Source: Escherichia phage vB_Eco_mar004NP2
Reading direction: 5' to 3' (one strand)
Sequence record: NC_048205.1
Length of the DNA: 64,000 nucleotides
The notes beneath the pieces are model-generated. The model was not told the origin of the DNA. It searched no databases and saw nothing but the letters and a program-made list of their open reading frames with translations. The translations under genes and the position numbers were made by a program. Positions 984 through 18,911 of this stretch are shown here, piece by piece (the stretch's first letter is position 1; every line of letters begins with the position of its first letter).

Positions 984-1040
984 ACTTATATAAATTGATG
1001 AAAAGGCTATCTACACACTACAAGAAATAGGGGTATTCCA

Positions 1041-1418: not shown

Positions 1419-1422
1419 TTAA

Positions 1423-3055: not shown

Positions 3056-3163
3056 GTATATAGCTGAGGTTATTATTAAACGAATTATACAGGCGATAGC
3101 AATACTTATAATCATTTGTATTGCTATTGGCACAGGATTAGGCATTTTAATTGAAAGTTTTAT

Positions 3164-3192
3164 TTGCTAAAATGCCTAAGTTTCTGTATAAT
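3164..3192 (+). promoter_or_regulatory. sigma70-type promoter TTGCTA-N17-TATAAT
   Basis: -35 at 3164-3169, -10 at 3187-3192; conserved TTTATAAATTGATGAGAAGG downstream box. Confidence 0.55.
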
Positions 3193-3222
3193 TACTTTAT
3201 AAATTGATGAGAAGGAATCAAA

Positions 3223-3654
3223 ATGAACAAAGTTGATAAAGCTCTAGTTTTCACAGCAGCAGATAAGTTTGAACAAGTTAAGGCAACTTTCCGAACCTTG
3301 TTCCAGTCTTACGTTCAGGATAAGTCTAATCCTATCTCTGAACGTTTGATGGTCTGGGAATGTCATGCATGCAATGCCTTATTAATTGCTGATTATCGTA
3401 GCGATATAGATAAAGATCTGTGCGAAATTCTTATCGCTGAGGAGGCAGAACGTTATCAGTTAATCTCTTTCCAAGATTTGGCAGAGCATATCATTCCCGA
3501 TGATCTTTGGGATAAATACTATGGTGATCCTGAAGATGAAGGAATGACTCCAGAAGCATGCATTGAGCTGATCTGCAAAGATCATCCTGAAATTGCAGAG
3601 AAATTTGAAAAAGTTTTTGCTTCTGAGTTCTCCGGCGTTGTTAACGATTGGTAA
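3223..3654 (+). CDS. hypothetical early protein (143 aa)
   Basis: ORF with RBS GAAGGA. Confidence 0.6.
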   Translation: MNKVDKALVFTAADKFEQVKATFRTLFQSYVQDKSNPISERLMVWECHACNALLIADYRSDIDKDLCEILIAEEAERYQLISFQDLAEHIIPDDLWDKYYGDPEDEGMTPEACIELICKDHPEIAEKFEKVFASEFSGVVNDW

Positions 3655-3671
3655 GTAATTAAAAAATTCAG

Positions 3672-3700
3672 TTGCTTTAAGCCTTAAAATTCTGTATAAT
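3672..3700 (+). promoter_or_regulatory. sigma70-type promoter TTGCTT-N17-TATAAT
   Basis: -35 at 3672-3677, -10 at 3695-3700; same downstream ATAAATTAATGAGAGAGG box. Confidence 0.55.
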
Positions 3701-3714
3701 AAGTTCATAAATTA

Positions 3715-3984
3715 ATGAGAGAGGAAATTCTAATGGAAAACATGACTAAAAATGAAATGGCTAACGTTCTGGCAATTCTCCTCGACATGCAGGGTTTTGA
3801 AGGCCAGCTCATGAAGATGTCTATTCCGGCAATGAAAAAGATGTACGATTCCCTGAATAAGAATGCTATGGCGTTCAACCTTGCAAAACAAGAAGCACGT
3901 TTTGCTAAAGAGCATCAGGCAACTGCCGAACGTCGTGCAGCATCTTTTGAGCGTGAAGTTAAGCAACTGAAAGGTAAGAAATAA
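3715..3984 (+). CDS. hypothetical protein (89 aa)
   Basis: ORF after promoter; basic C-terminus. Confidence 0.55.
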   Translation: MREEILMENMTKNEMANVLAILLDMQGFEGQLMKMSIPAMKKMYDSLNKNAMAFNLAKQEARFAKEHQATAERRAASFEREVKQLKGKK

Positions 3985-4148
3985 TGGAAAGAATATCCAT
4001 TTTTATGCTATCACTCCTTTTAGGAGTGTTAATATATAGTATAGTTTCTCTTCACACACGTTTAGCAGAACTAGACAATTCTATCCACGAGTTAAATGTG
4101 GAGTTGTGTAAACTAGTTCCAAACAATGAAAAATGTAAGGATATTTAA
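3984..4148 (+). CDS. small single-pass membrane protein (54 aa), not in ORF track
   Basis: ATG overlaps upstream stop (TAATG); hydrophobic N-terminal helix then helical tail; coupled to next ORF. Confidence 0.4.
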   Translation: MERISIFMLSLLLGVLIYSIVSLHTRLAELDNSIHELNVELCKLVPNNEKCKDI

Positions 4149-4429
4149 TGTTGATTGAAATTCTTATTGGGTTACTAGTTCTTACTACACTAGTAGCGAT
4201 TGGTGGAGTTATTGGGATTGTGAATGCACGAAAAAACATGGAAAGTATGCTTAGTACTAATGATGGACTACACCACCGTTTGCTAGAGCAAGAGCAAGAT
4301 ATTGAATTAGCACAAAGACGCTCGGATATTCTTAAGGAAAAACTAAATAGTATAGAAGCAATAGTTGGGAATAATAAATTACCGGCTAAAGTAATGCGTA
4401 CACAGATAATCACGGAGATTAAAAAATGA
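4148..4429 (+). CDS. small membrane protein with coiled-coil tail (93 aa)
   Basis: N-terminal TM helix LIEILIGLLVLTTLVAIGGVIGIV then charged helix. Confidence 0.55.
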   Translation: MLIEILIGLLVLTTLVAIGGVIGIVNARKNMESMLSTNDGLHHRLLEQEQDIELAQRRSDILKEKLNSIEAIVGNNKLPAKVMRTQIITEIKK

Positions 4430-4671
4430 TGATGTTTATTCTAGCATTTTATCTAATCGTGGTGGGAGTTCTAGTTACTAAGTACCATACATGGGCACCA
4501 AAGAATGTAGTTAAGGTAGCACTATTTGTTATTCCAGTCCCACTTATTATACTTTCTATGTTACTGGTGATGTTAATTGGTAAAGTGACGAAGACCGATA
4601 TTAAACGCATTGCTGATGAATTGCAACAGTCTTGTGATATGGTAGAGGATATTCTTAAAGATGAAGCTTAA
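4426..4671 (+). CDS. small two-TM membrane protein (81 aa)
   Basis: two hydrophobic segments; ATGA overlap with upstream gene. Confidence 0.55.
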   Translation: MMMFILAFYLIVVGVLVTKYHTWAPKNVVKVALFVIPVPLIILSMLLVMLIGKVTKTDIKRIADELQQSCDMVEDILKDEA

Positions 4672-4987
4672 TTTTAATGAATTAAATACCTTACATGAGA
4701 TACTACAGTTTGTGAATAATAATATTAGCATTCCAGATGACACGCTAGAAGTTCTCATGTTAATCGAGAAAAAGGTAGGAATTGAAATTGAGGATTCTTG
4801 GAAACCACTTTCTGTATTAACACCACTTAATATGAAAGTGATAGTTAAAAATATTGATACTGGTGAAGAGTGTGAAATGATTCGTAAAGAACTAGCTGAT
4901 AGCTATTCACCAAAGTCTGTAGTAATGTACCATGATGATACCGCTAAGACTCTACAGACAGCTAATTATGTATGGCGTCTCCCATGA
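4661..4987 (+). CDS. hypothetical protein (108 aa)
   Basis: ORF. Confidence 0.5.
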   Translation: MKLNFNELNTLHEILQFVNNNISIPDDTLEVLMLIEKKVGIEIEDSWKPLSVLTPLNMKVIVKNIDTGEECEMIRKELADSYSPKSVVMYHDDTAKTLQTANYVWRLP

Positions 4988-5130
4988 TTGATTTAGTACC
5001 AATTACTGCGGGGCTAATAGCACTATTAGTGCTCGCAGTTTTCATTATTGTGGAGCAGGCCAAAGTAATAAGGAGACTTAAAAACAATGGTAAAACGTCT
5101 TGTTTATCAGGCACCAAAGATTGTAACTGA
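4984..5130 (+). CDS. possible small membrane protein (48 aa), not in ORF track
   Basis: ATGA overlap with upstream stop; hydrophobic core; overlaps next ORF start in another frame, so uncertain. Confidence 0.25.
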   Translation: MIDLVPITAGLIALLVLAVFIIVEQAKVIRRLKNNGKTSCLSGTKDCN

Positions 5131-5287
5131 GTATTTTGTATTACTGCCTCAGATTGTATTTCTAACAGCATTATTTAATATACTTTTTCGACATCTAGGA
5201 ATAACGGAAAATATCTTCTACACTTCTGGGCTACTTCCTTTTATGTACGAAGGCATCATCGTGGCAATTAACGGAGTTCGTAAATGA
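5087..5287 (+). CDS. small membrane protein (66 aa)
   Basis: strong RBS AAGGAGA; hydrophobic segment. Confidence 0.5.
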   Translation: MVKRLVYQAPKIVTEYFVLLPQIVFLTALFNILFRHLGITENIFYTSGLLPFMYEGIIVAINGVRK

Positions 5288-5745
5288 CAGCACTACAACA
5301 ACTACAGAATTACTGGTTTGATAACCAATTTAACGATCTCTTCATCCAGTTGTTTGTCGAAACGAACGGACGCTTCAACTACCGATTCTTTAATAAGTTT
5401 CACGAAACAAAATTCTCGCATACAGAAATTAATGCAGCAATCCAAGACCTAACTGGTTCTAAAGTAATTCAGTATCGTGAAGTAGACTTCACACCAGATT
5501 GTTTTGGGTTTGAATTGTTTAAGAAAGCGTATAAATTTGGTAAGTTTGAGGATGCTCGTCAATGGGTTCATGATTTCTGGTACAACACCGATATTGTCCC
5601 TAGTCGCGTGCTGATTCTTAACTGGATTGCTAAGCAACATCCACCTAAAACGCAATCATCCTTCTTACCGACTGACACAGGAAACCTCTACCATGACAGA
5701 AAAGAAAAACCCATTATTGGAGCAGATGAAGGAGTGGGAGAGTAA
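5284..5745 (+). CDS. hypothetical protein (153 aa)
   Basis: ORF, ATGA overlap with upstream gene. Confidence 0.55.
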   Translation: MTALQQLQNYWFDNQFNDLFIQLFVETNGRFNYRFFNKFHETKFSHTEINAAIQDLTGSKVIQYREVDFTPDCFGFELFKKAYKFGKFEDARQWVHDFWYNTDIVPSRVLILNWIAKQHPPKTQSSFLPTDTGNLYHDRKEKPIIGADEGVGE

Positions 5746-6064
5746 TATTGAAACTGGTCTAATAGACGGTGAAGATATTGTCAACTCCATGCTAGAAGTA
5801 ACAGTAGATAATATTAATCCTATTTTGGCTGGAGAAACCTCAGATCTTATAGGACTCTCTAGCACATTTGATTCTTTGGCTAAATTAGCTTTAGACGATG
5901 AAGATATAACCAAAGAAGATCTCGCTACAGCTATGAATATGGCTATTAATGCTTACATCGGTAAACGTACTGATGAACTTGGTAAACAGATCAATAAGCG
6001 TGATGCTACGCTAGGTCTTATGGAAACGGCCACTATGTTAAGAAGTGGTAAACAACTTCATTAA
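5693..6064 (+). CDS. hypothetical protein (start trimmed to MTEKK)
   Basis: ORF track start 5627 overlaps upstream gene by >100 nt; internal ATG with AGGA upstream chosen. Confidence 0.45.
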   Translation: MTEKKNPLLEQMKEWESNIETGLIDGEDIVNSMLEVTVDNINPILAGETSDLIGLSSTFDSLAKLALDDEDITKEDLATAMNMAINAYIGKRTDELGKQINKRDATLGLMETATMLRSGKQLH

Positions 6065-6071
6065 TTTTAGG

Positions 6072-6104
6072 AGGCCAGGACTTAGTTGTTCTGGCCTTTT
6101 ATGT
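6072..6104 (+). terminator. rho-independent terminator
   Basis: hairpin GGCCAGGAC..TCTGGCC followed by TTTTATGTTTT. Confidence 0.55.
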
Positions 6105-6120
6105 TTTCAAGGAACTTCAA

Positions 6121-6324
6121 ATGCAAGTATATGTCCTTACTAGAGATATAAATGAGTATAATCAGGATGGTGAGTATTTTGTAAAAGTATTCGCTGAAAA
6201 GCCAAGTAAACAACAATTATTAGATGCGGGGGTACCCGAAGACCAGGCTAAGTGTATACTACAAGATAAAGAGTTTACCGGGGATGCTTACGAATGTTTC
6301 TACCTTAACTGTGAGACTATTTAA
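6121..6324 (+). CDS. hypothetical protein (67 aa)
   Basis: ORF after terminator. Confidence 0.45.
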   Translation: MQVYVLTRDINEYNQDGEYFVKVFAEKPSKQQLLDAGVPEDQAKCILQDKEFTGDAYECFYLNCETI

Positions 6325-6325
6325 T

Positions 6326-6772
6326 ATGAGAGAGAAAGTAAATGAATTATTAATCGAGGAAGCTAACAACTTTCCAATAAATAGGTTCATCAAATCGGAT
6401 GGATCTATTAATAGAACTAAAATTAAGCAGCTACATCCCGACTTCCAACAAGAAGCACTAAACCTTATATTTATCAAGAAAGCTGTTGCAGCTCATGGAG
6501 CTTTCTTCGGGTATGAGCGTGTAAATTATAAGACAATGCAACAGCAAGTTGAGATCTATTGTCCAGATCACGATGGTTATTACTGGCAAACTGCTAGATC
6601 TCATTTAGAAGGTCATGGATGTCGACTGTGCGCACACAAGGTTGTGCAGCGTGTCACGGATTATGGAACTTATACCGTACCAGCATGTTACCATAAATTT
6701 GTAATTGACGATAATCATATAGTTTGGTATAATAAGTTTTCAAAGCTAAGAATGGAGATAAGTAGTGAGTAG
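6326..6772 (+). CDS. zinc-ribbon protein with homing-endonuclease-type CxxH..GxGCxxC motif
   Basis: YERVNYKTMQQQVEIYCPDHDGYYWQTARSHLEGHGCRLCAHK; same motif class as ORFs at 24721-25394; start trimmed to ATG 6326. Confidence 0.45.
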   Translation: MREKVNELLIEEANNFPINRFIKSDGSINRTKIKQLHPDFQQEALNLIFIKKAVAAHGAFFGYERVNYKTMQQQVEIYCPDHDGYYWQTARSHLEGHGCRLCAHKVVQRVTDYGTYTVPACYHKFVIDDNHIVWYNKFSKLRMEISSE

Positions 6773-7055
6773 CTATATTGTATGGTCAAACCCACTAGCA
6801 GCACTTAGTAACAAACTATTTAAAACAACGTGGGGGTATAATGAAATAGACTTAGGTAGTCGCCCAATACCAAACAAACACCCCTTAGTTCCAGAGCTGT
6901 ATAAGGTAGTGATAAATGGCACGGAGTATTTGGTTGATAAATTTGACAGAAAACGTTTACTAGAGGGTATCTACGATAATTCTACATCGATAAATGAATT
7001 AGTAGAACATGCCCAAATATACGATAAGAGCTGGATGTTAATATGGAGATCATAG
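6765..7055 (+). CDS. hypothetical protein (96 aa)
   Basis: ORF. Confidence 0.5.
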   Translation: MSSYIVWSNPLAALSNKLFKTTWGYNEIDLGSRPIPNKHPLVPELYKVVINGTEYLVDKFDRKRLLEGIYDNSTSINELVEHAQIYDKSWMLIWRS

Positions 7056-7276
7056 TAATTATTTTAGCAGTTATGTTATTTATTGTAACATTTGTATCGT
7101 TTGCTATTATGCGCAGAGCTATAGAACTAGCGGAAGATATAACAAAATTACGCGGTGAGTTGGCTGCTCTTAAACTACAACGTGAAGCCCTCAAGCTATT
7201 TGTAGCTCAAGGTAGCGTAGAGCATACAGCAGAAGACTTCATCATATATCTCAAACGTTACATGGGAGTTAAATAA
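7043..7276 (+). CDS. small membrane protein with coiled coil (77 aa)
   Basis: N-terminal TM helix plus heptad-like helix. Confidence 0.5.
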   Translation: MEIIVIILAVMLFIVTFVSFAIMRRAIELAEDITKLRGELAALKLQREALKLFVAQGSVEHTAEDFIIYLKRYMGVK

Positions 7277-7461
7277 TGGAAACTCTTTTTCTTTTAATGC
7301 TCGTAGGTTCCTTGCTAGTTATATTAGCACTTCTACTGATCTGCAATATTCTTAATAATAAGAATCTAGAGCTAAAGTGTGAGAACCAAATCCTTAACCG
7401 TGAACTTAAACAATATAATCTAGCAGCCCATAAACTGTTAGACAAACTGGAGAATAAATAA
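7276..7461 (+). CDS. small membrane protein with coiled coil (61 aa)
   Basis: TM helix LFLLMLVGSLLVILALLLI plus helical tail; coupled start. Confidence 0.5.
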   Translation: METLFLLMLVGSLLVILALLLICNILNNKNLELKCENQILNRELKQYNLAAHKLLDKLENK

Positions 7462-8063
7462 TGTTTACACAACAACCTATTCAAGTAGTACCAGACCATG
7501 AACTGAACACATGGGATTATAGCCTTAAAGATTTAACTGCTACTGTACAATTCAAATCTATGAAGCTAACATTTGCACACACTGACCTTAGAGCCTGTAA
7601 AGATCTTGAAGGTAAGCTCGAAGATGCTCGTAGGATTTTTGGCACGGCTCGCATCCCGGCTGATAACCTGATTAATGCACTAATCGATGCGGGATACAAA
7701 CTCGTGAAGACTGAGGTGAACCGCCCCAATACTCCAGTGACTATTAGAGACCCGTGGCAGTCAGGGCCAAATACAATGTGGAACAGCCCTAAAATAACGT
7801 CGGATTTGCACAATGTTCCTTGTGGGGGTGTGGTAAGTAGTACGAAGTCATATAAGTTTGGTGAAGATTATGGGCCTTCTGTACAGTTAAAGCATACCCA
7901 AGAAGCTCTTGAATCTGACATGAAAAGCGTAGCGCCTGCGGATACTGAAGGTTTTAGAAGTCCCATCTATGTTACTCACTTTAATAATCTTAGACCTGGG
8001 AGTATAAATGATACTATCCTTGAGGCGTTGGGAGCTGCTCTTAATGAGAGTAAAAAGGATTAA
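7461..8063 (+). CDS. hypothetical protein (200 aa)
   Basis: ORF, ATGA-type coupling. Confidence 0.55.
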   Translation: MFTQQPIQVVPDHELNTWDYSLKDLTATVQFKSMKLTFAHTDLRACKDLEGKLEDARRIFGTARIPADNLINALIDAGYKLVKTEVNRPNTPVTIRDPWQSGPNTMWNSPKITSDLHNVPCGGVVSSTKSYKFGEDYGPSVQLKHTQEALESDMKSVAPADTEGFRSPIYVTHFNNLRPGSINDTILEALGAALNESKKD

Positions 8064-8143
8064 TAATTTCCTAATACATGAGCCTCTACGGAGGCTCTAA
8101 AATAAAAAGAAGGTCATCCAGACCTTAAAAACGGGAGATAATA

Positions 8144-9028
8144 ATGTATAACTTTAAAGATAAACTAAGACAAAATGCTGGTAAAACAAAACCTAAAGAG
8201 AATAATAATGTTCCTAATGCCAAAGTATTACCATTTCCAGAACTGTCTCAAGAAGAAAAAGATAAGTTAGCATTTATGTTTGATGCTCTTCTAGGGCTAA
8301 GTGGACGTTTATATTCCTCACTCAATATTAATGAGAAACGTCTAGTAGAGATGTTCTGTAAACGTTACCAAGTTACTTCAAAGGGCAATTCTTATAAAGA
8401 AGGTGAAAAAGCATTTACAGTCTTAAAGATTAGCGCATATGCACATCGTTTCTTAGTTTATGGATTGCAAATGGAATACTTCACCATCCCATCATTTAGC
8501 TCTTTCCATATCTTTGAAGATGAACGAATGAATATTGATGATCTCTATGGGGATACGTACAAATACTCAGGAAGTCCATTCCACGATGCATTAAGGAGCT
8601 ACCCTACTAGTTACTTACCAGTTAGGGCATCTCAAGGTAAAGCTAGCGTTTTTGCTGTTTACTCAGGATCTAAAGCATCGGATCTAGAAACTTATATATT
8701 TAAAGAGCGTAAATCTGTACTTCCAGATGAAGCATTGTATAGCAATCCATTGCTTCCAGAAAAAGAACCAGAGAAAATTGATGTAACCCCACCAATCCCA
8801 TCTGATTCTCAATATTTAATTTATGAGAAACAAGTTAAGTTATCCCTAGAAATTGGGTTAGTTACACCGCTTGCTGCAGCGTTCATAAATAGATACCTAG
8901 AAATCCCAGATGAGTTCCACCAACGTTATAATACGAATATTCAGATAACGGATGAATTAATTGCGTTAGCAAAAGATACACCTACTGACACTGAGGCGTA
9001 TCAAAAAGCATACCAAGAGTTATTATAA
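8144..9028 (+). CDS. hypothetical protein (294 aa)
   Basis: ORF with RBS GGGAGA. Confidence 0.6.
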   Translation: MYNFKDKLRQNAGKTKPKENNNVPNAKVLPFPELSQEEKDKLAFMFDALLGLSGRLYSSLNINEKRLVEMFCKRYQVTSKGNSYKEGEKAFTVLKISAYAHRFLVYGLQMEYFTIPSFSSFHIFEDERMNIDDLYGDTYKYSGSPFHDALRSYPTSYLPVRASQGKASVFAVYSGSKASDLETYIFKERKSVLPDEALYSNPLLPEKEPEKIDVTPPIPSDSQYLIYEKQVKLSLEIGLVTPLAAAFINRYLEIPDEFHQRYNTNIQITDELIALAKDTPTDTEAYQKAYQELL

Positions 9029-9561
9029 TATTCTGCATGTCTCGGTGCACAATACCTGTACCGAGACTCAAATACAAACTCTCGTTGACAGATAGCTAAA
9101 TGTATGTTATCATAACTCTATGAGTTAATAGAATTAACCATTTAGAGTTGCCACACAGAAGGTGTGGTGGTTCAGTAATTTAAAATTACTAACTTGTAGC
9201 GGAGGATACGGAGCGACAGGACAAGTTAATAAGTAATTTAATATAAATTGCTAGAAACATCACGAGACCTTCTGGCGGGGGCAAAGCTCTATATGAGAAC
9301 CCTGGGGGATCTTATATTTAAAATAAAAGTAAAACTTTTGACCATATAATTTACATTCAAGATGATACACCTGTTGCCGCTCATCTGCTAGGATGGCACA
9401 ACACTTTCTTCTAGACTCCTAAGTTTCTAGGAAAACTCTTACACTCTAGGGCAGTTTCTCTCCAACGTTACATATCCTAGGCCGGTTTAATACAGGGCGG
9501 TTATTGGGAGGGCGGTTATTTCTAGAAGACATTTTTCCAAAACACATTTCCAGAAATTACT

Positions 9562-10163
9562 GTCGGATTCGCACATTGTGTTTCTAGAAATTTATGGTCG
9601 GATTTGCACAATTGCCTAAGTTTTCATGGACACATAATCTCCTGAAAATGGCAGCATTATTTCGGGCCGAAGGCCCATGATTGCCTGAGTTTTTAGAGCC
9701 ACAAGAATTTTCACTTGTCAAGCTATTTTGCCACCTTTAGCAAATAAAATTTTACTTTATCTCCACTAATCTCAAATTAACCCAAATCTTCTCAACTCTT
9801 CCCCCAAAAACGCAGCAAATCAGGCGTTGCACGCCACCCATGCTGCTCCTCCAGTTTCTCCACTTATTTTCTCTCGCTCTCTCATCTTCTCCTCAAACCT
9901 ATACAATCACACACCCTCCAATCGAAGTCACAAAAATCTTGTCGGATTCGCACATCTTAATCCTAGAAAAACCGTGTCGGATTTGCACATATCCCACAGG
10001 ATTCGAACGCAGTTCGAGATTGCTGGAGTTTTTGGGAAAATTCATTGTCGGATTTGCACACTATAAAAATTTTTGGGGTCGGATTTGCACACTACCAAAA
10101 ATTGTCGGATTCGCACATACACGCCCGCGCGTAATCCATGGTGGCAAATGTCGGATTTGCACA
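9562..10163 (+). repeat. array of 8 direct 14-bp iterons GTCGGATT(C/T)GCACA
   Basis: copies at 9562, 9597, 9941, 9976, 10047, 10078, 10104, 10150, all same orientation, irregular spacing. Confidence 0.85.
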
Positions 10164-10189
10164 AAAGCGCAGGGCAATTGCCCTGCGCT
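10164..10189 (-). terminator. perfect GC-rich palindrome; likely terminator for the minus-strand cassette
   Basis: AGCGCAGGGCAATTGCCCTGCGCT, 11-bp stem; on minus strand followed by TTTTGTG. Confidence 0.45.
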
Positions 10190-10190
10190 A

Positions 10191-10400
10191 AATACGAATG
10201 ATAATGAGAATCATTCGTATTTAAAAAGCGGAATAAGAATGATAATAGTTCTCATTTAGAAAGTGAAATGAGAATCAATCTCATTTAAGAAAGGGAATGA
10301 GAACTATTCAAAAAATGAAATGATTCTCATTTAAAAAATGGAATGATTATCGGTTAGATAGTGAAATGCGAATGATAATGATTCTCATTTAAGAATGGAA
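10191..10400. repeat. cluster of short palindromes AATGAGA-N-TCTCATT (hairpin/operator-like)
   Basis: at least 5 palindromic units read directly; extra copies at 10727-10747 and 19721-19738. Confidence 0.75.
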
Positions 10401-10420
10401 GCGAGAAACACTATTATTTA

Positions 10421-10530
10421 AGTTACCCACAGACTTATTAACAGCACGATTTGATTTGACAGAATCCTAGCCATTTTGAGGCGTTATCAACAGACTTATC
10501 CACAGCTTATCCTACTGTATAAATATACAG
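10421..10530. repeat. left arm of ~110-bp inverted repeat with DnaA-box-like sites and 16-bp palindrome
   Basis: reverse complement of 14001-14110 aligns with identical blocks AGTTAYCCACA..TTATTAACAGCAC and ACTTATCCACAG..TTATCCTACTGTATAAATATACAG. Confidence 0.8.
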
Positions 10531-10788
10531 TATTCCTACGCAGTGAATAATTCTAATATAGCGTTAAAACGTCCTAAATCGCATTCTAACGCGCTTAATT
10601 TTGATGGGGATACTAAAACAAGGGCAAAATTGGAGGAGGCTTAAAAATTAGTTAGCTTGCTAACGATCACACAAGGCGACACGTAACACCCTAATCATTA
10701 GCAGGCTAACCATCACGGGCGCGGTTAAATGAGAATCACTCTCATTTGAGAATTGGGGGCACTCCCTGGTAGTTGCGCCCCGTTATTA

Positions 10789-10983
10789 TTAGTCTGGTAG
10801 TCGATGCGTGATCTTTTCCTCCTCCCCGTAGGAATCCACCAAATGCTGATAATAACCATCGTGATCATAAATCACTTTATCATACTCGCCACGCTCGACC
10901 GCTTGTCGGTTTTCCGGCGTATCGGGCACGTAAAAAACATCAACCATTGTACTGATTTTGGTTACAACAATTTTATTGCTCAT
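10789..10983 (-). CDS. hypothetical protein (start trimmed to MSNKIVV)
   Basis: ORF; RBS AGGGG before internal ATG. Confidence 0.45.
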   Translation of the reverse strand: MSNKIVVTKISTMVDVFYVPDTPENRQAVERGEYDKVIYDHDGYYQHLVDSYGEEEKITHRLPD

Positions 10984-11085
10984 AATAACCCCTAGTAAAT
11001 ATATTTTTGCCAATAGTGGCGAACGTTATCGCCACCAGCGGAATCATTTGCAGCCTCAACATTACCCGCGAAAATATATATAATC

Positions 11086-11430
11086 TCATTGCGCCACCTT
11101 TCGAAACGCTGTTTCAATACTATCCGCAGTGGATTGAATATACGCGCCTTTCATTATCAGGCGCTCGGTGCATATCTTGCGAAAAATATTAATAAAATCA
11201 TCTTCATTTTCTGCAATTAACGCCTCACCCATGACCTGAACGTCGCAAGATGCAAAGGTCAAAAATTGAAACGCTAGTTCACGGGCAACGACCGCATTGA
11301 TTTTATAATGCGCCTTGCCTTCATAAATATTAATAACGCCCTTATAAGCTGGGGAAAGCTGATTTAAGTAGTTTGCTAGTAATGCCGGACGGCAATTAGC
11401 AACAAAACGATTGCCTTCATAAATTACCAT
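11086..11430 (-). CDS. hypothetical protein (start trimmed to MVIYEG)
   Basis: ORF; RBS GGGGAG before ATG 11430; abuts upstream gene. Confidence 0.5.
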   Translation of the reverse strand: MVIYEGNRFVANCRPALLANYLNQLSPAYKGVINIYEGKAHYKINAVVARELAFQFLTFASCDVQVMGEALIAENEDDFINIFRKICTERLIMKGAYIQSTADSIETAFRKVAQ

Positions 11431-11431
11431 T

Positions 11432-11644
11432 TTATAGCACTCCCCGAAACGCAGCGTAAAAGGTGGCAAAATGTTTAACTGTTTCAGCTATCACGTTGCC
11501 CCGTTTATCGAATTTTTTCTCGGTAACACGGAAGGCGTTTTTATTTCGCGCTACATATTCAATTTTACAATCTTCCCGCTCGAACGTGTTAACGTCCACC
11601 AGCTTAAAGCCTTTTGAACGTGCAAGGGAAACGTTACGAATCAT
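11432..11644 (-). CDS. hypothetical protein (70 aa)
   Basis: ORF. Confidence 0.5.
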   Translation of the reverse strand: MIRNVSLARSKGFKLVDVNTFEREDCKIEYVARNKNAFRVTEKKFDKRGNVIAETVKHFATFYAAFRGVL

Positions 11645-11646
11645 TT

Positions 11647-11796
11647 TTATTCTCCTTTACTAGTCATGCAGCCCAGCAGATAAGAAAATACAGCGATACC
11701 CGCACCAATAATAACCGCGTGAACGCCGAAAGCTATTGCAAAAAGTGATAAAATAGCGCCCAAGATACCTGCTAGAATAGCTCGAAAAATAACCAT
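11647..11796 (-). CDS. small membrane protein (49 aa), not in ORF track
   Basis: perfect RBS AGGAGG 6 nt before ATG; hydrophobic throughout. Confidence 0.45.
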   Translation of the reverse strand: MVIFRAILAGILGAILSLFAIAFGVHAVIIGAGIAVFSYLLGCMTSKGE

Positions 11797-11845
11797 TTGT
11801 GATAGCCTCCTAGTTATCGGGGGATATTATATCCCCCGTTATTAA

Positions 11846-12109
11846 TTACATTAAAACAATTTTTGCAGCTTGTTTTTTGGTGCAATGTTCCGCCTTCAGG
11901 GTATCCAGCAAAAAGCCAGCCGTTTGCTGATCGATTTTATCGGCGTTATATAGTTCCTGAATGGTATTATAGGTTTTAGCAATACCGAACTCCTGCACCA
12001 TTTCATAGATGACAGCACGATTAGATACCCAGCCTTGCGCGGTAAACAGATGACTAGCAGAAGAATAAGCAACCATTTTAAGCCTCCAAATTTTTGGGAA
12101 AATTTTCAA
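11846..12109 (-). CDS. hypothetical protein (87 aa)
   Basis: ORF. Confidence 0.5.
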   Translation of the reverse strand: MKIFPKIWRLKMVAYSSASHLFTAQGWVSNRAVIYEMVQEFGIAKTYNTIQELYNADKIDQQTAGFLLDTLKAEHCTKKQAAKIVLM

Positions 12110-12182
12110 CCGTCCTTAAACGGTGTAAAGGCATTATAACAAAAAAGGCCACCAATTATGGCGACCTTTACAAAACTTTACA

Positions 12183-12677
12183 TTAAACTACTTGTAATGT
12201 TTCAATATTGAAACATCGTTTCAATTCGTCATGCAAAACAGCGTATTCATCCCATCGGGTACTATCAGGGATATAAACAAGCTGTTTTAGTCGGTTTGCG
12301 TATATTACCGCTTTATTTCCGATTATTTCAGCGCCACCATATTTAATAATTAATTTCATGACGGAATTAATAGGATCGCCGCCGTTTACATATGTGCCGG
12401 ATTTACTTAATTGATAATGATAAAGGCTTGCATATACATTATCATTCTCATACCATTCGCCCGTTTCCTCATCTTCATAGCCATCGCTACCAAAACGAGA
12501 AGCATTATCAACAGCCATTTCATGAGCGAAAGCGTCGAGATCCGTACCAGCAGGAACAAAATATTCCTCAGTATTCCCTTCACCGCAATAGCCAGTATGA
12601 CAATCGACCAAAATGATCATATCATGTTTAGCCTTGCTCACTTCCCCTAGCGAAAACCCATATTTTTCCTCAGCCAT
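12183..12677 (-). CDS. hypothetical acidic protein (164 aa)
   Basis: ORF with RBS AGGAGG; Asp/Glu-rich. Confidence 0.6.
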   Translation of the reverse strand: MAEEKYGFSLGEVSKAKHDMIILVDCHTGYCGEGNTEEYFVPAGTDLDAFAHEMAVDNASRFGSDGYEDEETGEWYENDNVYASLYHYQLSKSGTYVNGGDPINSVMKLIIKYGGAEIIGNKAVIYANRLKQLVYIPDSTRWDEYAVLHDELKRCFNIETLQVV

Positions 12678-12742
12678 TTATTAGCCTCCTATTAATTAAT
12701 AAGGGAATAGTAAAGCGGGGAAACAATCCCCGCTAAATATTA

Positions 12743-13735
12743 TTACTCGCTTTCGGTGCTAGTGGTAAAAGTAGAAATATCGATACCTTTCACCATTTCA
12801 TCAATCATTTCAGCGATGTTAAAACTTTGCACCATTTCTAGCATTGCCGCTTCCATAGCTGCGCCTGCTACCGCTTTCGCTTTCTGGTTATTCGGGGCGT
12901 ACTGGTCAACCGCTACGCTCAGCAGGTTAGCAATAACTACCCGACCAATCGGCGTATCAATATAACCTTTAATCATAAACGGCGCTTTTTTAGCCGCTAC
13001 TTTCGTGATTTGAGTCAATGCAATTTTGCCAGCTTCCAGTTTTGCAGCATTTACAACAGCGGATTTATTAGCGGCAACGATATTAGCGATCTTGGTCATG
13101 GTATTATTTCCTTTGTTTTCAGTAGTTTGAGTGTTAACGCTTTGAGTGTTAGAATTTACAGCATGTTTTTCCGTGTTGTCAATAGGCTGATCTTCCTCCT
13201 TCCAGAAAGAAAAGCCCGCGCTTTCAATATCCCCATCATATACATAAGGGTACACTTCCGACGGTAACAAAAAATTACCGTTATCATCAAAGGCCATTAC
13301 AGCCGCGAAACGATACCCGTCACAATCCGACCGATTCCAGCCAACTGATAAATAACGCCAAAATGAATCAAGAAAATTTTCAATATCATAAAGATCATTG
13401 GGGTTGGCTTCATAATTTTCTATTGAAAAAACTTCTAAGCCTGCCCCAGTATCATAGGCTTTTACTGTGCTACCTTTTACGATTATGAAATCAGTATCCG
13501 GCCCTCGACTAGTGAGCAATTGATAATCTTGATTATATAAAACAAGCGTTGCCCCTTGTTTATATAACGGTAGAAAACTATTCATATCATAGGCATCGAA
13601 ATCACCAAAAAAGTTTTGGTGAATAGTTTCAGCCTTGTTAATAAAATGTTTAATGCTGGTTGTTCTGCTACCGTCCAGCAGGTTACGCAGCGCACCTTTT
13701 AAGACGGTTGCGTTATCTGGTTTATATAGCCTCAT
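12743..13735 (-). CDS. hypothetical protein (330 aa)
   Basis: ORF with RBS GAGGGAGG; first gene of minus-strand cassette. Confidence 0.6.
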   Translation of the reverse strand: MRLYKPDNATVLKGALRNLLDGSRTTSIKHFINKAETIHQNFFGDFDAYDMNSFLPLYKQGATLVLYNQDYQLLTSRGPDTDFIIVKGSTVKAYDTGAGLEVFSIENYEANPNDLYDIENFLDSFWRYLSVGWNRSDCDGYRFAAVMAFDDNGNFLLPSEVYPYVYDGDIESAGFSFWKEEDQPIDNTEKHAVNSNTQSVNTQTTENKGNNTMTKIANIVAANKSAVVNAAKLEAGKIALTQITKVAAKKAPFMIKGYIDTPIGRVVIANLLSVAVDQYAPNNQKAKAVAGAAMEAAMLEMVQSFNIAEMIDEMVKGIDISTFTTSTESE

Positions 13736-14000
13736 TTGTTGGCCTCCCTCGTTAATCGGTGAGTGAATGATAAAGGCAATTTTCTAGCATAGGCAAATAT
13801 TATTTTACCTTTTTATTTTCCTTGCCTAGCGCCTAGTTTTATGCTAACCGCGCAGCGGTACAGTAAAGAGCAAAACACGGTGAAGCCACCAGGGCGACGG
13901 GTGAAGGCTTCACTTTAATATTACCCCACCGCATTTAGCTCGTTAGAAAGCGTTTTAGGCCGCCTAAAATTGATTGCAGTTGTTAACACTACCTTTTTAC

Positions 14001-14110
14001 CCTGTATATTTATACAGTAGGATAACATGTGGATAAGTCTGTGGATAAGTCCTTATATCGTCGCCTATCGTGTCAAATCATTTTGTGCTGTTAATAAACT
14101 TGTGGATAAC
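14001..14110. repeat. right arm of ~110-bp inverted repeat with DnaA boxes
   Basis: TGTGGATAA at 14027-14035, 14039-14047, 14100-14108; palindrome CTGTATATTTATACAG 14001-14016. Confidence 0.8.
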
Positions 14111-14392
14111 TTAAATGATAGTGGTTCTCACTTAGGACGATAGTTTCTTATAGTTATTATTTCTATCGGTTACGATTTCTTATAATTATTATTTCTCATT
14201 AATTTATAAGTATATTATATATCATGAAATAGTTAGTTGGCTAATGAGATTTTCCGTGATTAATAGTCTGCTAACAGTTCCGGCTGTTACAATCCACCAG
14301 CATGATTATCATCCTAGCAACTATTAGTCTGCTATCTTTCCGATGCATACTAACAAATAAAAGTCAATTAATTTATTTCATAAAATAAGTAG

Positions 14393-14425
14393 TTATCCAC
14401 TGGAAAATAAAAGTCAAGTGGATAA
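14393..14425. promoter_or_regulatory. inverted pair of DnaA boxes
   Basis: AGTTATCCAC..N17..GTGGATAACT, perfect 10-bp inverted repeat matching DnaA-box consensus TTATCCACA. Confidence 0.6.
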
Positions 14426-14826
14426 CTAGGAAAATTTCATTTTTGCTTTTGGGGATAAGTTATCAACAAGGCTAGAATGCGCCTAAAACGCCCTATAACG
14501 CGATGAAGTTTTTAGCCATGCCATTGCATTGCCTACCCTCGTTTATCGCTACCACGAGCTTTTTAGTTTTTGTCAAGTAGGGCAAGGCAAATATAAATGA
14601 AAAAATTACTTGCCAACCTGCTGGGTTTTATGGTATTCGCGCGCCCGTTTCCTTTAATTTTAGTGCGCCGCGCCCAGGTCGCCGCACGGTGTCCGGTGGC
14701 ATTTTGTCTTTACGTTTCTTTACAAAAATAAGGTTGCGCCATTTTTACTATTTGCTATTATTTATCTCGTAGGGCGGCAATGACGAACTACACGGCGGGA
14801 AGTTTACCGCCGCGCTCTTTAAAAAT

Positions 14827-15116
14827 TGGGTACATCTTAAAGTCTATCGGCGGTAAACTTATATTATAAGGAATCGCAGATATGAAACAAACTTTATTGA
14901 TCACTGGTAAACCAGCTAAAAAATTAGATGGTACTACTAAAAAATTGTTGACAATAGCCCAGCAATCCGTAAAATACCGATTTGCTCAGTACAAGAAAGG
15001 CCGCCAGCAGGGTTTAGAAATGATCTGGCGTAATATTATGATCGACCTGAAAGAAAATCATAAAAAACTGCAAAAAACAGTTTGACACCCTAGCCGATAG
15101 GCTTTAAGATGTACCC
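14827..15116. repeat. 24-bp inverted repeat pair flanking the 67-aa gene
   Basis: GGGTACATCTTAAAGTCTATCGGC (14827-14850) versus GCCGATAGGCTTTAAGATGTACCC (15093-15116), 1 mismatch. Confidence 0.7.
14882..15085 (+). CDS. small basic protein (67 aa)
   Basis: ORF with RBS AAGGAA; Lys-rich. Confidence 0.5.
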   Translation: MKQTLLITGKPAKKLDGTTKKLLTIAQQSVKYRFAQYKKGRQQGLEMIWRNIMIDLKENHKKLQKTV

Positions 15117-15315
15117 AGTTCGATGAGAGCGATAACTTGATACAATTTGACGGTTAGGTGATTCCCCATAAATCATCCTGCCCCCTAACTGGGATATAGC
15201 AGCCTGCGTGGAGTTCCTTAAATTGATTATAGCGGTGAGCGGATTGTTGCTTATTACCTGCTACTTTCTAGCAGGTAATGCGGAACAATCCCCTAAATAA
15301 CTTGGAGTTTATACT

Positions 15316-15567
15316 ATGCAAAACGTTATTACCGCGCCTAAAATTGGTCAATCCGTTTTTATTCCTTTCGTTACTAAAACGGATGAACTAACCGGAAAAG
15401 CCGAACGTATTAAAGGTGCGGCGCTTATGCCGTTTGATACAATCGACGCGGTATACGCTGAAAATGAACGTAGTAACAACGGCAAAACCGTTTTTAGCGT
15501 TCGCGTTAAATCCGGCGACGTTGTAAAGGTTGTACAGCGTAACGAAAAATGGGAAGCTGTAGCGTAA
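15316..15567 (+). CDS. hypothetical pre-early protein (83 aa)
   Basis: ORF with conserved upstream box ..CCCCTAAAT..GGAGTTT.. Confidence 0.55.
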   Translation: MQNVITAPKIGQSVFIPFVTKTDELTGKAERIKGAALMPFDTIDAVYAENERSNNGKTVFSVRVKSGDVVKVVQRNEKWEAVA

Positions 15568-15663
15568 TAGTGTTACTTTTATATCCCCCAGTAGTTCGGG
15601 GGATATAACGATTAACATTATGTTAATCTTATCCCTTAAATTAAACTAATAGGAGTTTTTACC

Positions 15664-16071
15664 ATGACTAACGTTAAAACCGCAAAATTTGCTTGGAATG
15701 AAGAAAACACTCAAAAAGCTGTTTCTATGTACCAGCAGTTAATTAATGAAAACGGTTTAGATTTCGCAAATAGCGACGGTTTAAAAGAGATTGCAAAAGC
15801 AGTGGGCGCGTCTTCTCCCGTGTCTGTTCGCTCAAAATTGACCAGCGCAAAAGCGTATCAGAAAAGCGATAAGCCTCGCAAAGTTGGCGGCGGTAGCTCA
15901 ATCCGCAAAGCTCACTATGTACGCGTTATCGCTAAACATGCTATTGATTCCGGCATTATTAAAGACGCCGACGATCTGGCAAGTCTGGAAAGTGCAAAAC
16001 TTGAAACGCTGGACGCCGTAGCGCAACTGTTAGGCGTTGCCGATGAAGTAAAACAGGCCGCAGGTGAATAA
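15664..16071 (+). CDS. hypothetical pre-early protein (135 aa)
   Basis: ORF with conserved upstream box. Confidence 0.6.
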   Translation: MTNVKTAKFAWNEENTQKAVSMYQQLINENGLDFANSDGLKEIAKAVGASSPVSVRSKLTSAKAYQKSDKPRKVGGGSSIRKAHYVRVIAKHAIDSGIIKDADDLASLESAKLETLDAVAQLLGVADEVKQAAGE

Positions 16072-16127
16072 ATTTAATTAGTGGGGAATATTCCCCACTA
16101 TAATTTCCCTTTGACTGGAGTTTTAAA

Positions 16128-16325
16128 ATGATCTTTTACCCCACTGAATCGTTAATTTTAGGCTTATTTATTATGGCGGCCTCGTTATTATTCGCTTATT
16201 TTCAAAATGATTTAGACTCATATTATTTTAAACGTAAGTCTAAATTGGCAAAGCGTTTAGGTCTGATTTGTTTTATTGCCGCCATTGCTTGTGGTGTTAG
16301 TTCTAGCCTTATGCCTTTAAATTAA
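16128..16325 (+). CDS. small membrane protein (65 aa)
   Basis: two hydrophobic segments; conserved upstream box. Confidence 0.5.
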   Translation: MIFYPTESLILGLFIMAASLLFAYFQNDLDSYYFKRKSKLAKRLGLICFIAAIACGVSSSLMPLN

Positions 16326-16422
16326 TGTTGCAAATTATAACGCCTATTATTCAAGGCGTTATATTTGGCAATATTTGCCAATAACAAACGTTTTTTAATC
16401 CCTTTAATGGAGTTTTATTAAT

Positions 16423-18087
16423 ATGATTATTTCCGCAGAAAAACAAACCGTTATCCTGAAAATGGCCGCTGACTTTAATTTCTATGGTAAACGTCTGCGC
16501 GCTACTAAACTGGAGGTCTGCGACGATATATCAAAAGCGGTCTACGATACAACAAAACACTCGACCGCTATCTGCGACTGGTTGGAAGCAAATAAACCAG
16601 CTAAACCGAAAGCGGCGAAAGTAGCAAAAGCCATTAAAAACGATGAGCGTCCAGAAGCGGCGGGGATTGTTTCTAGCACGGTTGAGCAATGGGAAGTAAA
16701 GCAGGGTAAACGCTTTATTATTACGTCGATTCAGAATAATACTTTCCCGCATAAAAACTTTTTAGCCTCATTGGAGCAATTTGCTAAATATATCGGCGCT
16801 GATTTGCTGGTTAGCAAGTTTATTTATAACAAAAACGGTTTTCAAAATGGCGAGGGTGCAGAAGGAATAAAATATGATTCCGCATTTGACAAATATATCT
16901 GCAATAAAAACGTGTTTTTAAATAACCGCCGTTTTGCTTTCATGGCTGAAATTAACGTTTTGCCAACCGCAGATTATCCGCTTTCTGGATTCGCTGAAAC
17001 TGCAACGGCGCTTAATCTGGAAGGTCTGGCAATTGGTCACGCTAAAATTACCGCTGAAAGCGTGCCAGCTTTAAAAGGTGAAGTAGTGCGCCGTATGTAC
17101 TCAACCGGAACGGCAACGCTCAAAAACTACATTCAGCAGAAAGCAGGACAAAAGGCCGAGGCGCTGCATAACTTCGGTGCGCTAATTGTCGAGTTCGACG
17201 AGGACGGGGAATTTTTTGTACGCCAGCTCGAAACGATGGACGAAAGCGGGGTATTTTATGATCTGAATGTGTGCGCTACTCCTGCCGGATGCTATGAGAC
17301 ATCGGGGCATGTTTTAGGCTTGCAATACGGCGATATTCACGCAGAAAAACTAGATGATGATTGTGCCGTTGCGTCATGGGCTGGCGAAAATAGCTTGCTT
17401 GATATTCTCAAGCCTAAATATCAGTTTATCCATGACGTGCATGATTTTACATCACGCAACCATCACAACCGCGCATCCGGTGTATTCCTAGCAAAACAAT
17501 ACGCCGCCGGACGTGATAAGGTATTAGATGATCTTATCGATACGGGGCGCGTGCTGGAATCAATGGAACGTGATTTCTCGCAAACAATCATTGTTGAATC
17601 TAATCACGATTTGGCGCTATCCCGTTGGCTTGATGATCGTAATGCTAACATTAAAGACGATCCAGCAAACGCGGAACTATATCACCGCCTAAATGCCGCG
17701 ATTTATGGAGCTATTGCAGAAAAAGACGATACTTTCAACGTGCTAGATTATGCGCTGCGCAAGGTTGCAGGTTGTGAGTTTAACGCCATTTTTCTAACTA
17801 CTGACCAATCTTTCAAGATTGCAGGCATTGAATGCGGCGTACACGGTCACAACGGCATTAACGGCAGCCGTGGCAATCCTAAACAATTTAAGAAATTGGG
17901 CAAATTAAACACCGGACACACTCACACCGCCAGCATTTATGGCGGCGTGTATACCGCTGGCGTAGCTGGTAGTCTGGACATGGGTTACAACGTTGGCGCG
18001 TCAAGCTGGACGCAAACGCATTTAATTACCTATGCAAACGGTCAGCGCACTTTGATTGACTTTAAAAACGGTAAATTCTTTGCGTAA
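16423..18087 (+). CDS. A1: A1-like pre-early protein (554 aa)
   Basis: size and position next to dmp-like gene as in T5 pre-early region; GDIH and GHNG motifs compatible with phosphoesterase-like fold (recalled, not searched). Confidence 0.6.
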   Translation: MIISAEKQTVILKMAADFNFYGKRLRATKLEVCDDISKAVYDTTKHSTAICDWLEANKPAKPKAAKVAKAIKNDERPEAAGIVSSTVEQWEVKQGKRFIITSIQNNTFPHKNFLASLEQFAKYIGADLLVSKFIYNKNGFQNGEGAEGIKYDSAFDKYICNKNVFLNNRRFAFMAEINVLPTADYPLSGFAETATALNLEGLAIGHAKITAESVPALKGEVVRRMYSTGTATLKNYIQQKAGQKAEALHNFGALIVEFDEDGEFFVRQLETMDESGVFYDLNVCATPAGCYETSGHVLGLQYGDIHAEKLDDDCAVASWAGENSLLDILKPKYQFIHDVHDFTSRNHHNRASGVFLAKQYAAGRDKVLDDLIDTGRVLESMERDFSQTIIVESNHDLALSRWLDDRNANIKDDPANAELYHRLNAAIYGAIAEKDDTFNVLDYALRKVAGCEFNAIFLTTDQSFKIAGIECGVHGHNGINGSRGNPKQFKKLGKLNTGHTHTASIYGGVYTAGVAGSLDMGYNVGASSWTQTHLITYANGQRTLIDFKNGKFFA

Positions 18088-18143
18088 ATAATTAATCCCC
18101 TAGCGGCTTGAAATATAGCCGCTATTACAGGAGCTAAATTAGA

Positions 18144-18401: not shown

Positions 18402-18439
18402 ATTAAATCCATTATTAAACTAATTGGAGTTTTATAAAC

Positions 18440-18832: not shown

Positions 18833-18911
18833 TAGTTAATTTATTATTACCCGCTTATAAATAGCGGGTAATGCTGAATTAATCTAATCCCTTAAATGGA
18901 GAACGTAACAA

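Follow-up and report, generated by a model that had tools for sequence, protein, structure and literature searches.

A GC-rich hairpin at a predicted nick and a Fur-like array of dyads in the injection stop signal region of a T5-like phage

Why should some 200 bp of non-coding phage DNA carry a perfect GC-rich palindrome of 24 bp and, directly next to it, a series of AT-rich dyads built on AATGAGA and TCTCATT half-sites? The two lie together at positions 10164-10400 of the window, by which we mean the whole 64,000-nucleotide stretch of DNA that was analysed. The initial annotation offered two readings for the entire tract, operators of a dimeric regulator or cruciform-forming DNA, and it suspected a connection with a pre-early block, with nicks or with the ends of the genome.

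The tract and the layout of the terminal repeat

Judged by its sequence, the window is that of a T5-like phage (Demerecviridae), reverse-complemented relative to T5. A BLAST search with positions 9800-10900 returned 447 phage records, and all of them are T5-like (Demerecviridae of Salmonella, Escherichia and Klebsiella). A 391-bp core of the region was found in 547 phage records, and the A1 protein is 100% identical to A1 of Salmonella phage SPLA5b. The T5 record (AY543070) has a left terminal repeat (LTR) annotated at 1-10219, which contains dmp, A1 and A2, an "injection stop signal (iss)" at 9140-10149 and a "major DNA single-chain interruption" in the minus strand at 9748/9749. Window positions 9650-10850 are collinear with T5 positions 9100-10300, with a mean column identity of 87%.

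By homology, positions 10164-10400 are inside the counterpart of the T5 iss, or "Repeat Region 3". The larger tract at 10131-10532 is in a large non-coding region at the inner end of the terminal repeat and downstream of the pre-early genes, and it has the same elements in the same order as the T5 iss, namely the DnaA-box pairs in inverted repeats, the DRC/DRE/pal units, the GC palindrome and the DRD repeats. Some details differ from T5. The palindrome is perfect over 24 bp here and has an 18-bp core in T5; the window has one AT-rich unit more than T5; it has copy A and an intact terminal dyad (Table 1), neither of which is found in T5; and it has 6 + 2 copies of the DRD repeat as compared to nine in T5. 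Beyond position 19756 the window runs into sequence that precedes the right repeat in T5.

Table 1. Positions of the iss elements, the related terminal copies and the terminal repeat in the window; a slash in a motif marks the interruption
Feature	Position	Strand	Remarks
Terminal repeat (first-step-transfer DNA)	9696-19756		Reverse-complemented relative to the T5 LTR; placed by homology to the T5 LTR and its two boundaries
Left physical genome end	~19756		By homology
dmp	18912-19646		
A1	16423-18087		
A2	15664-16071		
DRD repeats outside the terminal repeat	starts 9562, 9597		Two further copies
DRD repeats, GTCGGATTYGCACA	9941..10163; starts 9941, 9976, 10047, 10078, 10104, 10150	+	Six copies; match 'DRD' of Wang and Davison
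Bipartite nick signal, GTAAT-N29-AA/GCGCAGG	10131-10173	+	Homologue of the T5 interruption 9748/9749
GC palindrome	10166-10189		Perfect over 24 bp; conserved hairpin; followed on the minus strand by TTTTGTG
Directional AT-rich array	10189-10395	+	7-8 units; GAnAAT hexamers in 7-1-7 dyads; DRC/DRE/pal region of T5
Clear dyad	10189-10223		14-nt perfect arms
One-mismatch dyad	10238-10258		
Clear dyad	10266-10288		
Half-unit	10296-10309		Pairs with 10244-10256
Clear dyad	10317-10332		
One-mismatch dyad	10371-10389		
Junction between AT-rich array and DnaA boxes, GAAGCGAGAAACACTATTATTTAAG	10397-10421	+	Present in all relatives examined
Two pairs of DnaA or DnaA-like boxes, TTACCCACA + TTATTAACA and TTATCAACA + TTATCCACA	10422-10506	+	IRD'-spacer-IRC' of Davison
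20-bp palindrome, TACTGTATAAATATACAGTA	10513-10532		Adjoins the DnaA boxes; conserved in T5
Copy A, ATTAGCAGGCTAA..GGGCGCGGT..AAATGAGAATCACTCTCATTT..GGGGGCACT	10690-10775	+	Between the last rightward pre-early ORF and the iss
Two overlapping Fur-box-like 19-mers, 6 bp apart, including the perfect 7-1-7 dyad TGATAATGATTATCA	19518-19542		In the 3' part of dmp; T5 homologue 228-252
Copy B	19690-19756	+	Last ~65 nt of the left genome end; dyad TGAGACTCATTCTCA at 19723-19737

The tract is thus a rediscovery of an element already described in T5, because Davison 2020 lists for this region palC to palJ, DRB, DRC, DRE, nine copies of DRD and the paired DnaA boxes, and its palindromes and repeats had been described earlier (Heusterspreute 1987, Wang 2005 and Davison 2015, as cited in Davison 2020). 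What is new is that the GC palindrome is a conserved hairpin at the predicted major nick and that the AT-rich dyads read like Fur sites. The comparison splits a "bewildering array" into a hairpin that covaries, located at an extended bipartite signal for nicking, and an array that has the grammar of Fur operators, and it adds a duplicated module from the left end. The identity of the region with the T5 iss, the membership of the DRD repeats and DnaA boxes in the same element and the identity of the half-sites with those of Fur operators are additions to the initial annotation.

The order of the elements is maintained among the relatives. We compared 13 T5-like phages, and up to 26 loci for some questions. 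All 13 share the DRD repeats (GTCGGATTYGCACA), a CACGTAAT box, the last DRD, wAA/GCGCAGG, the GC hairpin (absent in the Klebsiella phages), 3-10 AT-rich units, GAAGTGAGAAACAC..TTTAAG and the paired DnaA boxes. Conservation in related phages, which the initial annotation had proposed as a check, is found for the order of the elements. The GC hairpin itself is absent in the Klebsiella phages and Pectobacterium phage My1; the Klebsiella phages retain AAGCGCAGG. My1, which belongs to another subfamily and has an A2 protein that is 58% identical, kept the DRD repeats, five Fur-like units and the DnaA boxes, and the motif of its units is unchanged. The Vibrio T5-like phage D414 (A1 34% and A2 42% identical) has DRD-like repeats (xTTCGCACAT), a GC-rich element, an AT-rich array and DnaA boxes, and its array consists of 48-bp units built on ATTATTGT octamers.

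Rfam returned chance matches below threshold only (SprD, 29 bits with a threshold of 100; PrrF, 23 with a threshold of 90); the tract is not a known RNA family. The ten pre-early proteins matched only DUFs in Pfam. Scanning viral contigs with the 18-mer of a DnaA-box pair (TTATCAACAGACTTATCC) produced 31 loci, four of them T5-like and the remainder without any feature of the iss, and a BLAST search of plasmids with one AT-rich unit produced only short, insignificant matches near unrelated genes.

The GC palindrome and the predicted major nick

The palindrome AGCGCAGGGCAATTGCCCTGCGCT exceeds every other perfect palindrome of the window in length, and in 200 first-order Markov shuffles the maximum was 20 bp, short of its 24 bp. 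The initial annotation correctly called it perfect and placed its start at 10164, which is 2 nt too early. It is probably palI/palJ in the T5 nomenclature. The corresponding T5 palindrome is at 9729-9746, and the T5 nick reads 5'-CAAAA/GCGCAGGGC. Because window positions 10162-10175 are identical to this annotated nick sequence, we predict a single-strand interruption in the plus strand between A10166 and G10167, that is, at the first base pair of the palindrome. The suspected link to nicks is thereby borne out by homology, in that the palindrome begins at the counterpart of the T5 7.9% nick.

As in the major nick sites of T5, the sequence AAAA/GCGCAGG (10163-10173) occurs on the strand that corresponds to the nicked one in T5, at the counterpart of 9748/9749, and its GTAAT box is at the same distance as in the other major nicks; it also fits the published consensus NPu/pGCGCN. 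The signal can be extended beyond that consensus, since all four annotated major nicks of T5 read RR/GCGCRGG with GTAAY 24-32 nt upstream, three of the T5 nick features being annotated "by match to the consensus" and not base-mapped. Within 112 kb of T5 the nicked strand has four occurrences of RRGCGCRGG, and these are the four major nicks; the other strand has two, both without GTAAY. The full bipartite motif is present twice on the plus strand of the window, at the palindrome and at 51673-51713, which is the homologue of the T5 64.8% nick and has a predicted interruption at 51706/51707. Unlike the other T5 major nick sites, the 7.9%-type site is in a conserved hairpin; the T5 nicks are annotated, whereas the nick here is predicted from the sequence. 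T5 mutants without nicks are viable, and so the nick is not essential for the pause in DNA transfer.

The hairpin has been kept as a structure. Among 18 distinct sequence versions of the site, all those that have the hairpin keep the stem GCAGGGC/GCCCTGC, with loops of 4, 5, 5 and 11 nt (AATT, AATTT, AAACT and AAAATGAAAAT), and the stem contains two independent compensatory pairs (GCAGAGC..GCTCTGC and CAGGTC..GACCTG). Since the loop varies in length while the stem is conserved and compensated, the GC palindrome, as far as a comparison of sequences can tell, is a selected stem-loop. The same variation, a spacer of 4-11 nt with the stem kept, rules out an operator for a dimer with fixed spacing. 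Folding, another check suggested by the initial annotation, was applied to the tract as a whole: as single-stranded DNA, positions 10140-10430 are far more stable than shuffled sequences (z = -8.3).

The AT-rich array and its likeness to Fur operators

The heptamers AATGAGA and TCTCATT occur 29 times in the window, and seven of the 29 fall within 211 bp (binomial p = 6e-12); TGAGAATNATTCTCA with up to 3 mismatches has 18 matches as compared to 6.3 expected. The cluster reported by the initial annotation is therefore real, although its palindromes are not all complete, some of the units being half-sites or dyads with one mismatch. The units have a left half TGA[GT]AAT and a right half ATTC[GT]CATTT, which resemble Fur operators, and a period of ~29-35 bp, with start-to-start spacings of 29, 35, 46 and 58 bp. 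The consensus of 45 distinct units, taken from 23 distinct arrays, is GAATGA(G/T)AAT(G/C)ATTC(G/T)CATTT. Across these 45 units, which are directional, the right half reads ATT[CAT][GT]CA followed by TTT.

The arms of these units do not behave like the stem of the GC palindrome. At the variable positions of the 45 units we found, in the 7-1-7 frame, no excess of complementarity between the arms (16/45 as compared to 16.3 expected, and 15/45 as compared to 20.7 expected), and in the 7-7-7 and 7-13-7 frames complementarity was likewise not above chance. Hairpins can be ruled out for the AT-rich units, because in three frames their variable arm positions are no more complementary than chance. Arms without covariation fit half-sites for a protein. 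Each of the two readings in the initial annotation thus holds for one part of the tract: the operator fits the AT-rich dyads only, with their arms that do not covary, and the structure fits the GC palindrome only, with its compensated stem.

Which protein do the half-sites resemble? The array follows the grammar of Fur operators, that is, strings of GAnAAT hexamers in the arrangement forward-forward(-forward)-x-reverse, 7-1-7 dyads and overlaps of 6 bp. Positions 10199-10215 (TGATAATGAGAATCATT) are identical to 17 nt of the aerobactin iucA promoter/operator; the 43-mer of this promoter has a 100% match in 791 plasmids, 20 bp upstream of iucA. At least 14 of the 19 positions of the Fur consensus are matched at 13 sites in the window, 11 of which are in the terminal repeat, and several are in pairs 6 bp apart. 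T5 has 13 unique sites of this quality, ten of them in the LTR. Matches of 14-16/19 are found at 10200, 10235, 10368/10374, 19518/19524 and 19718, and both the consensus and the 6-bp spacing are represented among them; a 6-bp offset is typical of real Fur clusters (PMC2189734).

The likeness also holds when matrices are exchanged. A matrix was built from the 45 phage units only and used to scan 50 kb of E. coli K-12 (595001-645000; 100,000 positions), and its top 11 matches are all in DNase-I footprints of Fur, covering four footprints of the ent-fep cluster (fepA-fes, fepB, entC and fepD-entS). The footprint coordinates were taken from Table 3 of PMC2189734 and shifted by +777 to NC_000913.3, and the shift was checked against the start of fepA. 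With the reverse matrix, built from the E. coli footprints and iucA, the top six matches in the window, and likewise in T5, are all inside the terminal repeat. The phage units are thus interchangeable with footprinted sites by both matrices and by the identity with iucA. Clusters of Fur-like sites are enriched in the terminal repeat (p = 4.6e-4 in the window and 1.0e-4 in T5), and the enrichment persists when the iss array is left out (p = 0.019 and 0.003, respectively). An AT bias can be ruled out as its cause, the repeat having 40.2% GC as compared to 38.6% elsewhere.

At the level of sequence, then, the motif of the AT-rich units is equivalent to Fur operators. It shares with those of iucA P1, fepB-entC, fepA-fes and fepD-entS the GAnAAT hexamers, the 7-1-7 dyads, the 6-bp overlaps and the reciprocal recognition by matrices. 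There are differences as well. Chromosomal Fur clusters extend over tens to ~100 bp, whereas the phage array is longer and more regularly phased (29-35 bp); the array prefers CG in its right half-site (ATTCGCA); it is in non-coding DNA of a virulent phage; and no recognisable promoter overlaps it.

Related dyads also occur outside the array. The initial annotation had seen two of them, at 10727-10747 and 19721-19738, both with a G-run and then CACT behind them. Both are real, and when they are aligned, as had been proposed, they prove to be the cores of a diverged direct repeat of ~65 nt that reads ATTAGCnnGCTAA..GGGCG(C)GGT..AATGAGAnTCAnTCTCAT.TG..GGGGGC(C)ACT (copies A and B in Table 1). The suggested link to the genome ends is likewise supported by homology, the copy at 19721 being ~20 bp from the left physical end. 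In My1 and EscoHU1 the dyad of copy B has its first base at nt 19, counted from the annotated left end, and the corresponding value for the window is about nt 21; copy B is degenerate in T5, DT57C and Sealy. Copy A is present in the Tequintavirus relatives and absent in T5, and Epseptimavirus has the dyad alone.

Possible roles in the pause of DNA transfer

The two-step DNA transfer of T5, in which entry is arrested once some 8% of the genome is inside, has been known for more than 50 years. Its arrest requires no protein synthesis and does not occur with FhuA proteoliposomes (Davison 2020), which favours a pre-existing host factor for the stop. Pauses during ejection in vitro correlate with the positions of the nicks (review PMC2771126), and this makes a structural contribution of nick and hairpin plausible. 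The reading that we prefer, and hold to be evenly balanced between right and wrong, is that the tract is the composite cis core of a T5-type iss, in which a GC stem-loop at the nick site is combined with an AT-rich array for a dimeric protein, host Fur being the simplest binder. Such an element would act at the level of the DNA at the inner end of the terminal repeat, where first-step transfer pauses. Its stem-loop would begin exactly at the 7.9% interruption and form part of the extended signal of GTAAY, ~29 nt and RR/GCGCRGG; on the opposite strand it resembles an intrinsic terminator at the close of the rightward pre-early operon. Pre-existing host Fur might load cooperatively on the ~200-bp array during entry, beside the paired DnaA boxes, and the complex next to these boxes might help to hold the DNA at the pause or to release it. 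Binding of a protein to the array, its identity as Fur and its contribution to the pause are all things that we infer. A more specific proposal, which we regard as unlikely, is that host Fur is the missing trans-acting partner of the iss in the enterobacterial T5-like phages. On entry, Fur dimers would then polymerise along the array of ~200 bp and at the dyad 20 bp in from the leading end of the DNA, and with DnaA at the neighbouring boxes they would form a complex that holds or caps the first-step-transfer DNA.

Some observations do not sit well with Fur. Binding of Fur is iron-dependent, and the two-step transfer is not known to depend on iron. Fur of Vibrio uses the same box, and the units of Vibrio phage D414 match the Fur consensus at no more than 11 of 19 positions though the architecture is kept; therefore the motif tracks the phage lineage, as expected for a phage-encoded binder. 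A literature search found no paper linking Fur to T5. Finally, Fur operators normally overlap promoters (39 of 42 strong Fur clusters overlap sigma-70 promoters; PMC2189734). At the array there are only weak 9/12 promoter-like matches, their number not clearly higher than in shuffles (8 as compared to 4.3 +/- 2.4), the T5 record has no promoter annotated at this position, and the lack of a strong promoter counts against Fur.

The binder might instead be encoded by the phage. The array would then consist of operators of a phage dimeric protein, most plausibly the pre-early A2, and its likeness to Fur sites would be incidental or a case of mimicry, an explanation that we consider possible, if somewhat unlikely. 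A2, acting with A1, would attach to the array in the stalled DNA and either release this DNA or pull in the remaining genome. A2 is annotated in T5 as a DNA-binding protein and is needed with A1 for transfer, and the motif of the array does follow the phage lineage, being the same in My1 and different in D414 (A2 identities as given above). The direction of the units, their consistently non-Fur-optimal right half (ATTCGCA) and the conserved CATTT tail would also suit such a protein. The AlphaFold model of A2 is all-helical (pLDDT 85) and has a weak, non-significant resemblance to HTH/Myb-like folds; Foldseek found no significant match (best E = 0.64), a sequence search of the PDB found none, and there is thus no support for a Fur-like winged helix in A2. 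Nor is a specific site for A2 known, and one would expect Fur to bind in vivo in any case to sites so near to its footprinted operators. Moreover, since the arrest occurs without protein synthesis, A2 cannot cause the stop and could act only at the restart. It is also conceivable, although we think it quite improbable, that no protein is involved, and that cruciforms or hairpins, a flexible nick and bent or easily unwound AT-rich DNA by the DnaA boxes, much like an origin, jam or slow the DNA in the channel of the tail or envelope. The stable single-stranded fold, the covarying GC stem and the correlation of in vitro pauses with nicks would agree with this, as would the retention in D414 of an AT-rich array of different sequence. 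However, covariation is missing between the arms of the AT-rich units, many of which are poor palindromes, base composition would by no means require so high a conservation of the sequence, and ejection into FhuA proteoliposomes in vitro is complete (Davison 2020); DNA structure alone therefore does not stop transfer.

Two other explanations were weighed. The terminal module, its internal copy and the nick signal might be sites for the terminase or for a nick-and-displace synthesis of the 10-kb repeat, and some of the layout would suit this: copy B keeps its distance of ~20 bp from the left end in both My1 and EscoHU1, the terminal ~65 nt recur in diverged form as copy A, the nick is ~470 bp from the inner boundary of the repeat, and strand displacement from nicks is an annotated activity of the T5 polymerase. 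Yet T5 packages normally with a degenerate copy B, which it shares with DT57C, and without copy A, and the array and hairpin are hundreds of bp from either boundary of the repeat, so that we consider a role in packaging very improbable. The GC palindrome might also be no more than an intrinsic terminator for the rightward pre-early operon, with the array as a small RNA or as the 3' untranslated region of that operon. The palindrome does look like such a terminator on the minus strand: the predicted RNA hairpin has a 10-bp stem (-24.6 kcal/mol, z = -5.7) and is followed by UUUUGUG, there is no other terminator-like site between the last ORF and the hairpin, and a covarying stem with a free loop is typical of terminators. 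A consensus terminator scan made no call at the site, though, and Rfam had nothing above threshold; the T5 record places another terminator, separate from this one, upstream of the iss; and the Fur-like grammar and the arrays would be left unexplained. This explanation seems to us extremely improbable.

A composite element with a nick-site stem-loop and a protein-binding array would have some practical consequences. If either Fur or A2 binds the array, the mechanism of stop and restart would be directly testable with standard tools. If the binder is Fur, genome entry would pause and restart in a manner coupled to the host's iron status; in this context, the enterobacterial T5-like phages use the iron-regulated receptors FhuA and FepA. 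Either way the element would bear on how the takeover of the host is staged and on why intercalators or defence systems can trap these phages after first-step transfer.

A last observation concerns the surroundings of the array. Davison 2020 compared this region of T5, whose replication origins map elsewhere, with oriC. The phage repeats differ from those of oriC in being dyads and hexamer strings and not 13-mer unwinding elements, and they share with oriC the placement of paired DnaA boxes directly beside an array of AT-rich repeats.

Bipartite nick signals

All four of the annotated major nicks of T5 share an extended motif, GTAAY-N24-32-RR/GCGCRGG (slash, nick), and on the T5 minus strand RRGCGCRGG occurs only at those four sites. 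No prior description of this bipartite signal was found in the accessible literature. The window has a second full copy, listed in the table with the other features, and this copy predicts a + strand nick at 51706/51707. Its T5 counterpart sits within the D13 gene.

Nick signals, Fur-like sites, palindromes and outlying DRD copies (window positions unless marked T5)
Feature	Sequence	Position	Strand	Remark
Bipartite nick signal, second complete copy	GTAACACTCGAGATCTCTTCATTTTGGTCGGTGG/GCGCAGG	51673-51713	+	Homologue of T5 64.8% major nick
Annotated major T5 nicks (loci L001-L003)		T5 9750, 22338, 39748, 78575	minus	
GC hairpin, then 9-1-9 palindrome	TATATCCCCC..GGGGGATATA, then GATTAACATTATGTTAATC	15582-15628		Directly upstream of A2
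Perfect Fur 7-1-7 consensus	TGATAATGATTATCA	19523-19537		T5 counterpart 233-247
Perfect palindrome, 22 bp	TAGTGGGGAATATTCCCCACTA	16079-16100		Shortly past A2, within terminal repeat
Perfect palindrome, 20 bp	ATGTTTCAATATTGAAACAT	12197-12216		Within terminal repeat
Two DRD copies		9562-9575, 9597-9610		Outside terminal repeat

Fur-like sites and paired DnaA-type boxes

Sites that resemble operators of the host iron repressor Fur are also present elsewhere in the terminal repeat. The 9-1-9 palindrome upstream of A2 is perfect, and its Fur-like score is among the highest (sites 15604/15610); this pair is also kept in T5, at 4169/4175. The perfect 7-1-7 consensus is overlapped by a second site, offset by 6 bp. 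It falls within the coding sequence of dmp, in the 3' portion, and the left end of the genome is about 230 bp away.

The counterpart of the injection stop signal region (iss) in Vibrio phage D414 (L071, 8820-9330) has the same architecture, with xTTCGCACAT repeats, a GC-rich GCGGGCGCGGAGCGC, an AT-rich array and DnaA boxes. The D414 array is not of the Fur-like type; its units measure 48 bp and contain the 8-nt sub-repeat ATTATTGT.

The 18-mer TTATCAACAGACTTATCC contains two DnaA-type boxes 3 bp apart. Exact copies are present in 27 viral contig stretches from IMG/VR that have no other features of the T5 iss (L006-L018 and L021-L034). This paired module seems to be widespread among unrelated phages.

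Boundaries of the terminal repeat

Because two copies of DRD, the direct repeat found beside the GC palindrome of the iss, are located in unique DNA past the 9696 boundary, the repeat region extends beyond the terminal repeat, as has likewise been reported for T5. The start of the right terminal repeat is annotated differently across records of near-identical sequence: relative to the T5 position, it is about 90 nt further in for chee24 (L044) and about 10 nt further in for Kenya-K15 (L045). Therefore, the deposited repeat boundaries of this family are unreliable at the base level.

Directly outside the left boundary, the + strand at 19777-19812 reads cgtacGTAATcc..N27..attA/GCGCAtag, which resembles a weak version of the nick signal, with a GTAAT box and Pu/GCGC. 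This sequence, which is kept at the T5 right-repeat junction (T5 ~111480-111520), may represent a minor nick or be tied to end formation.
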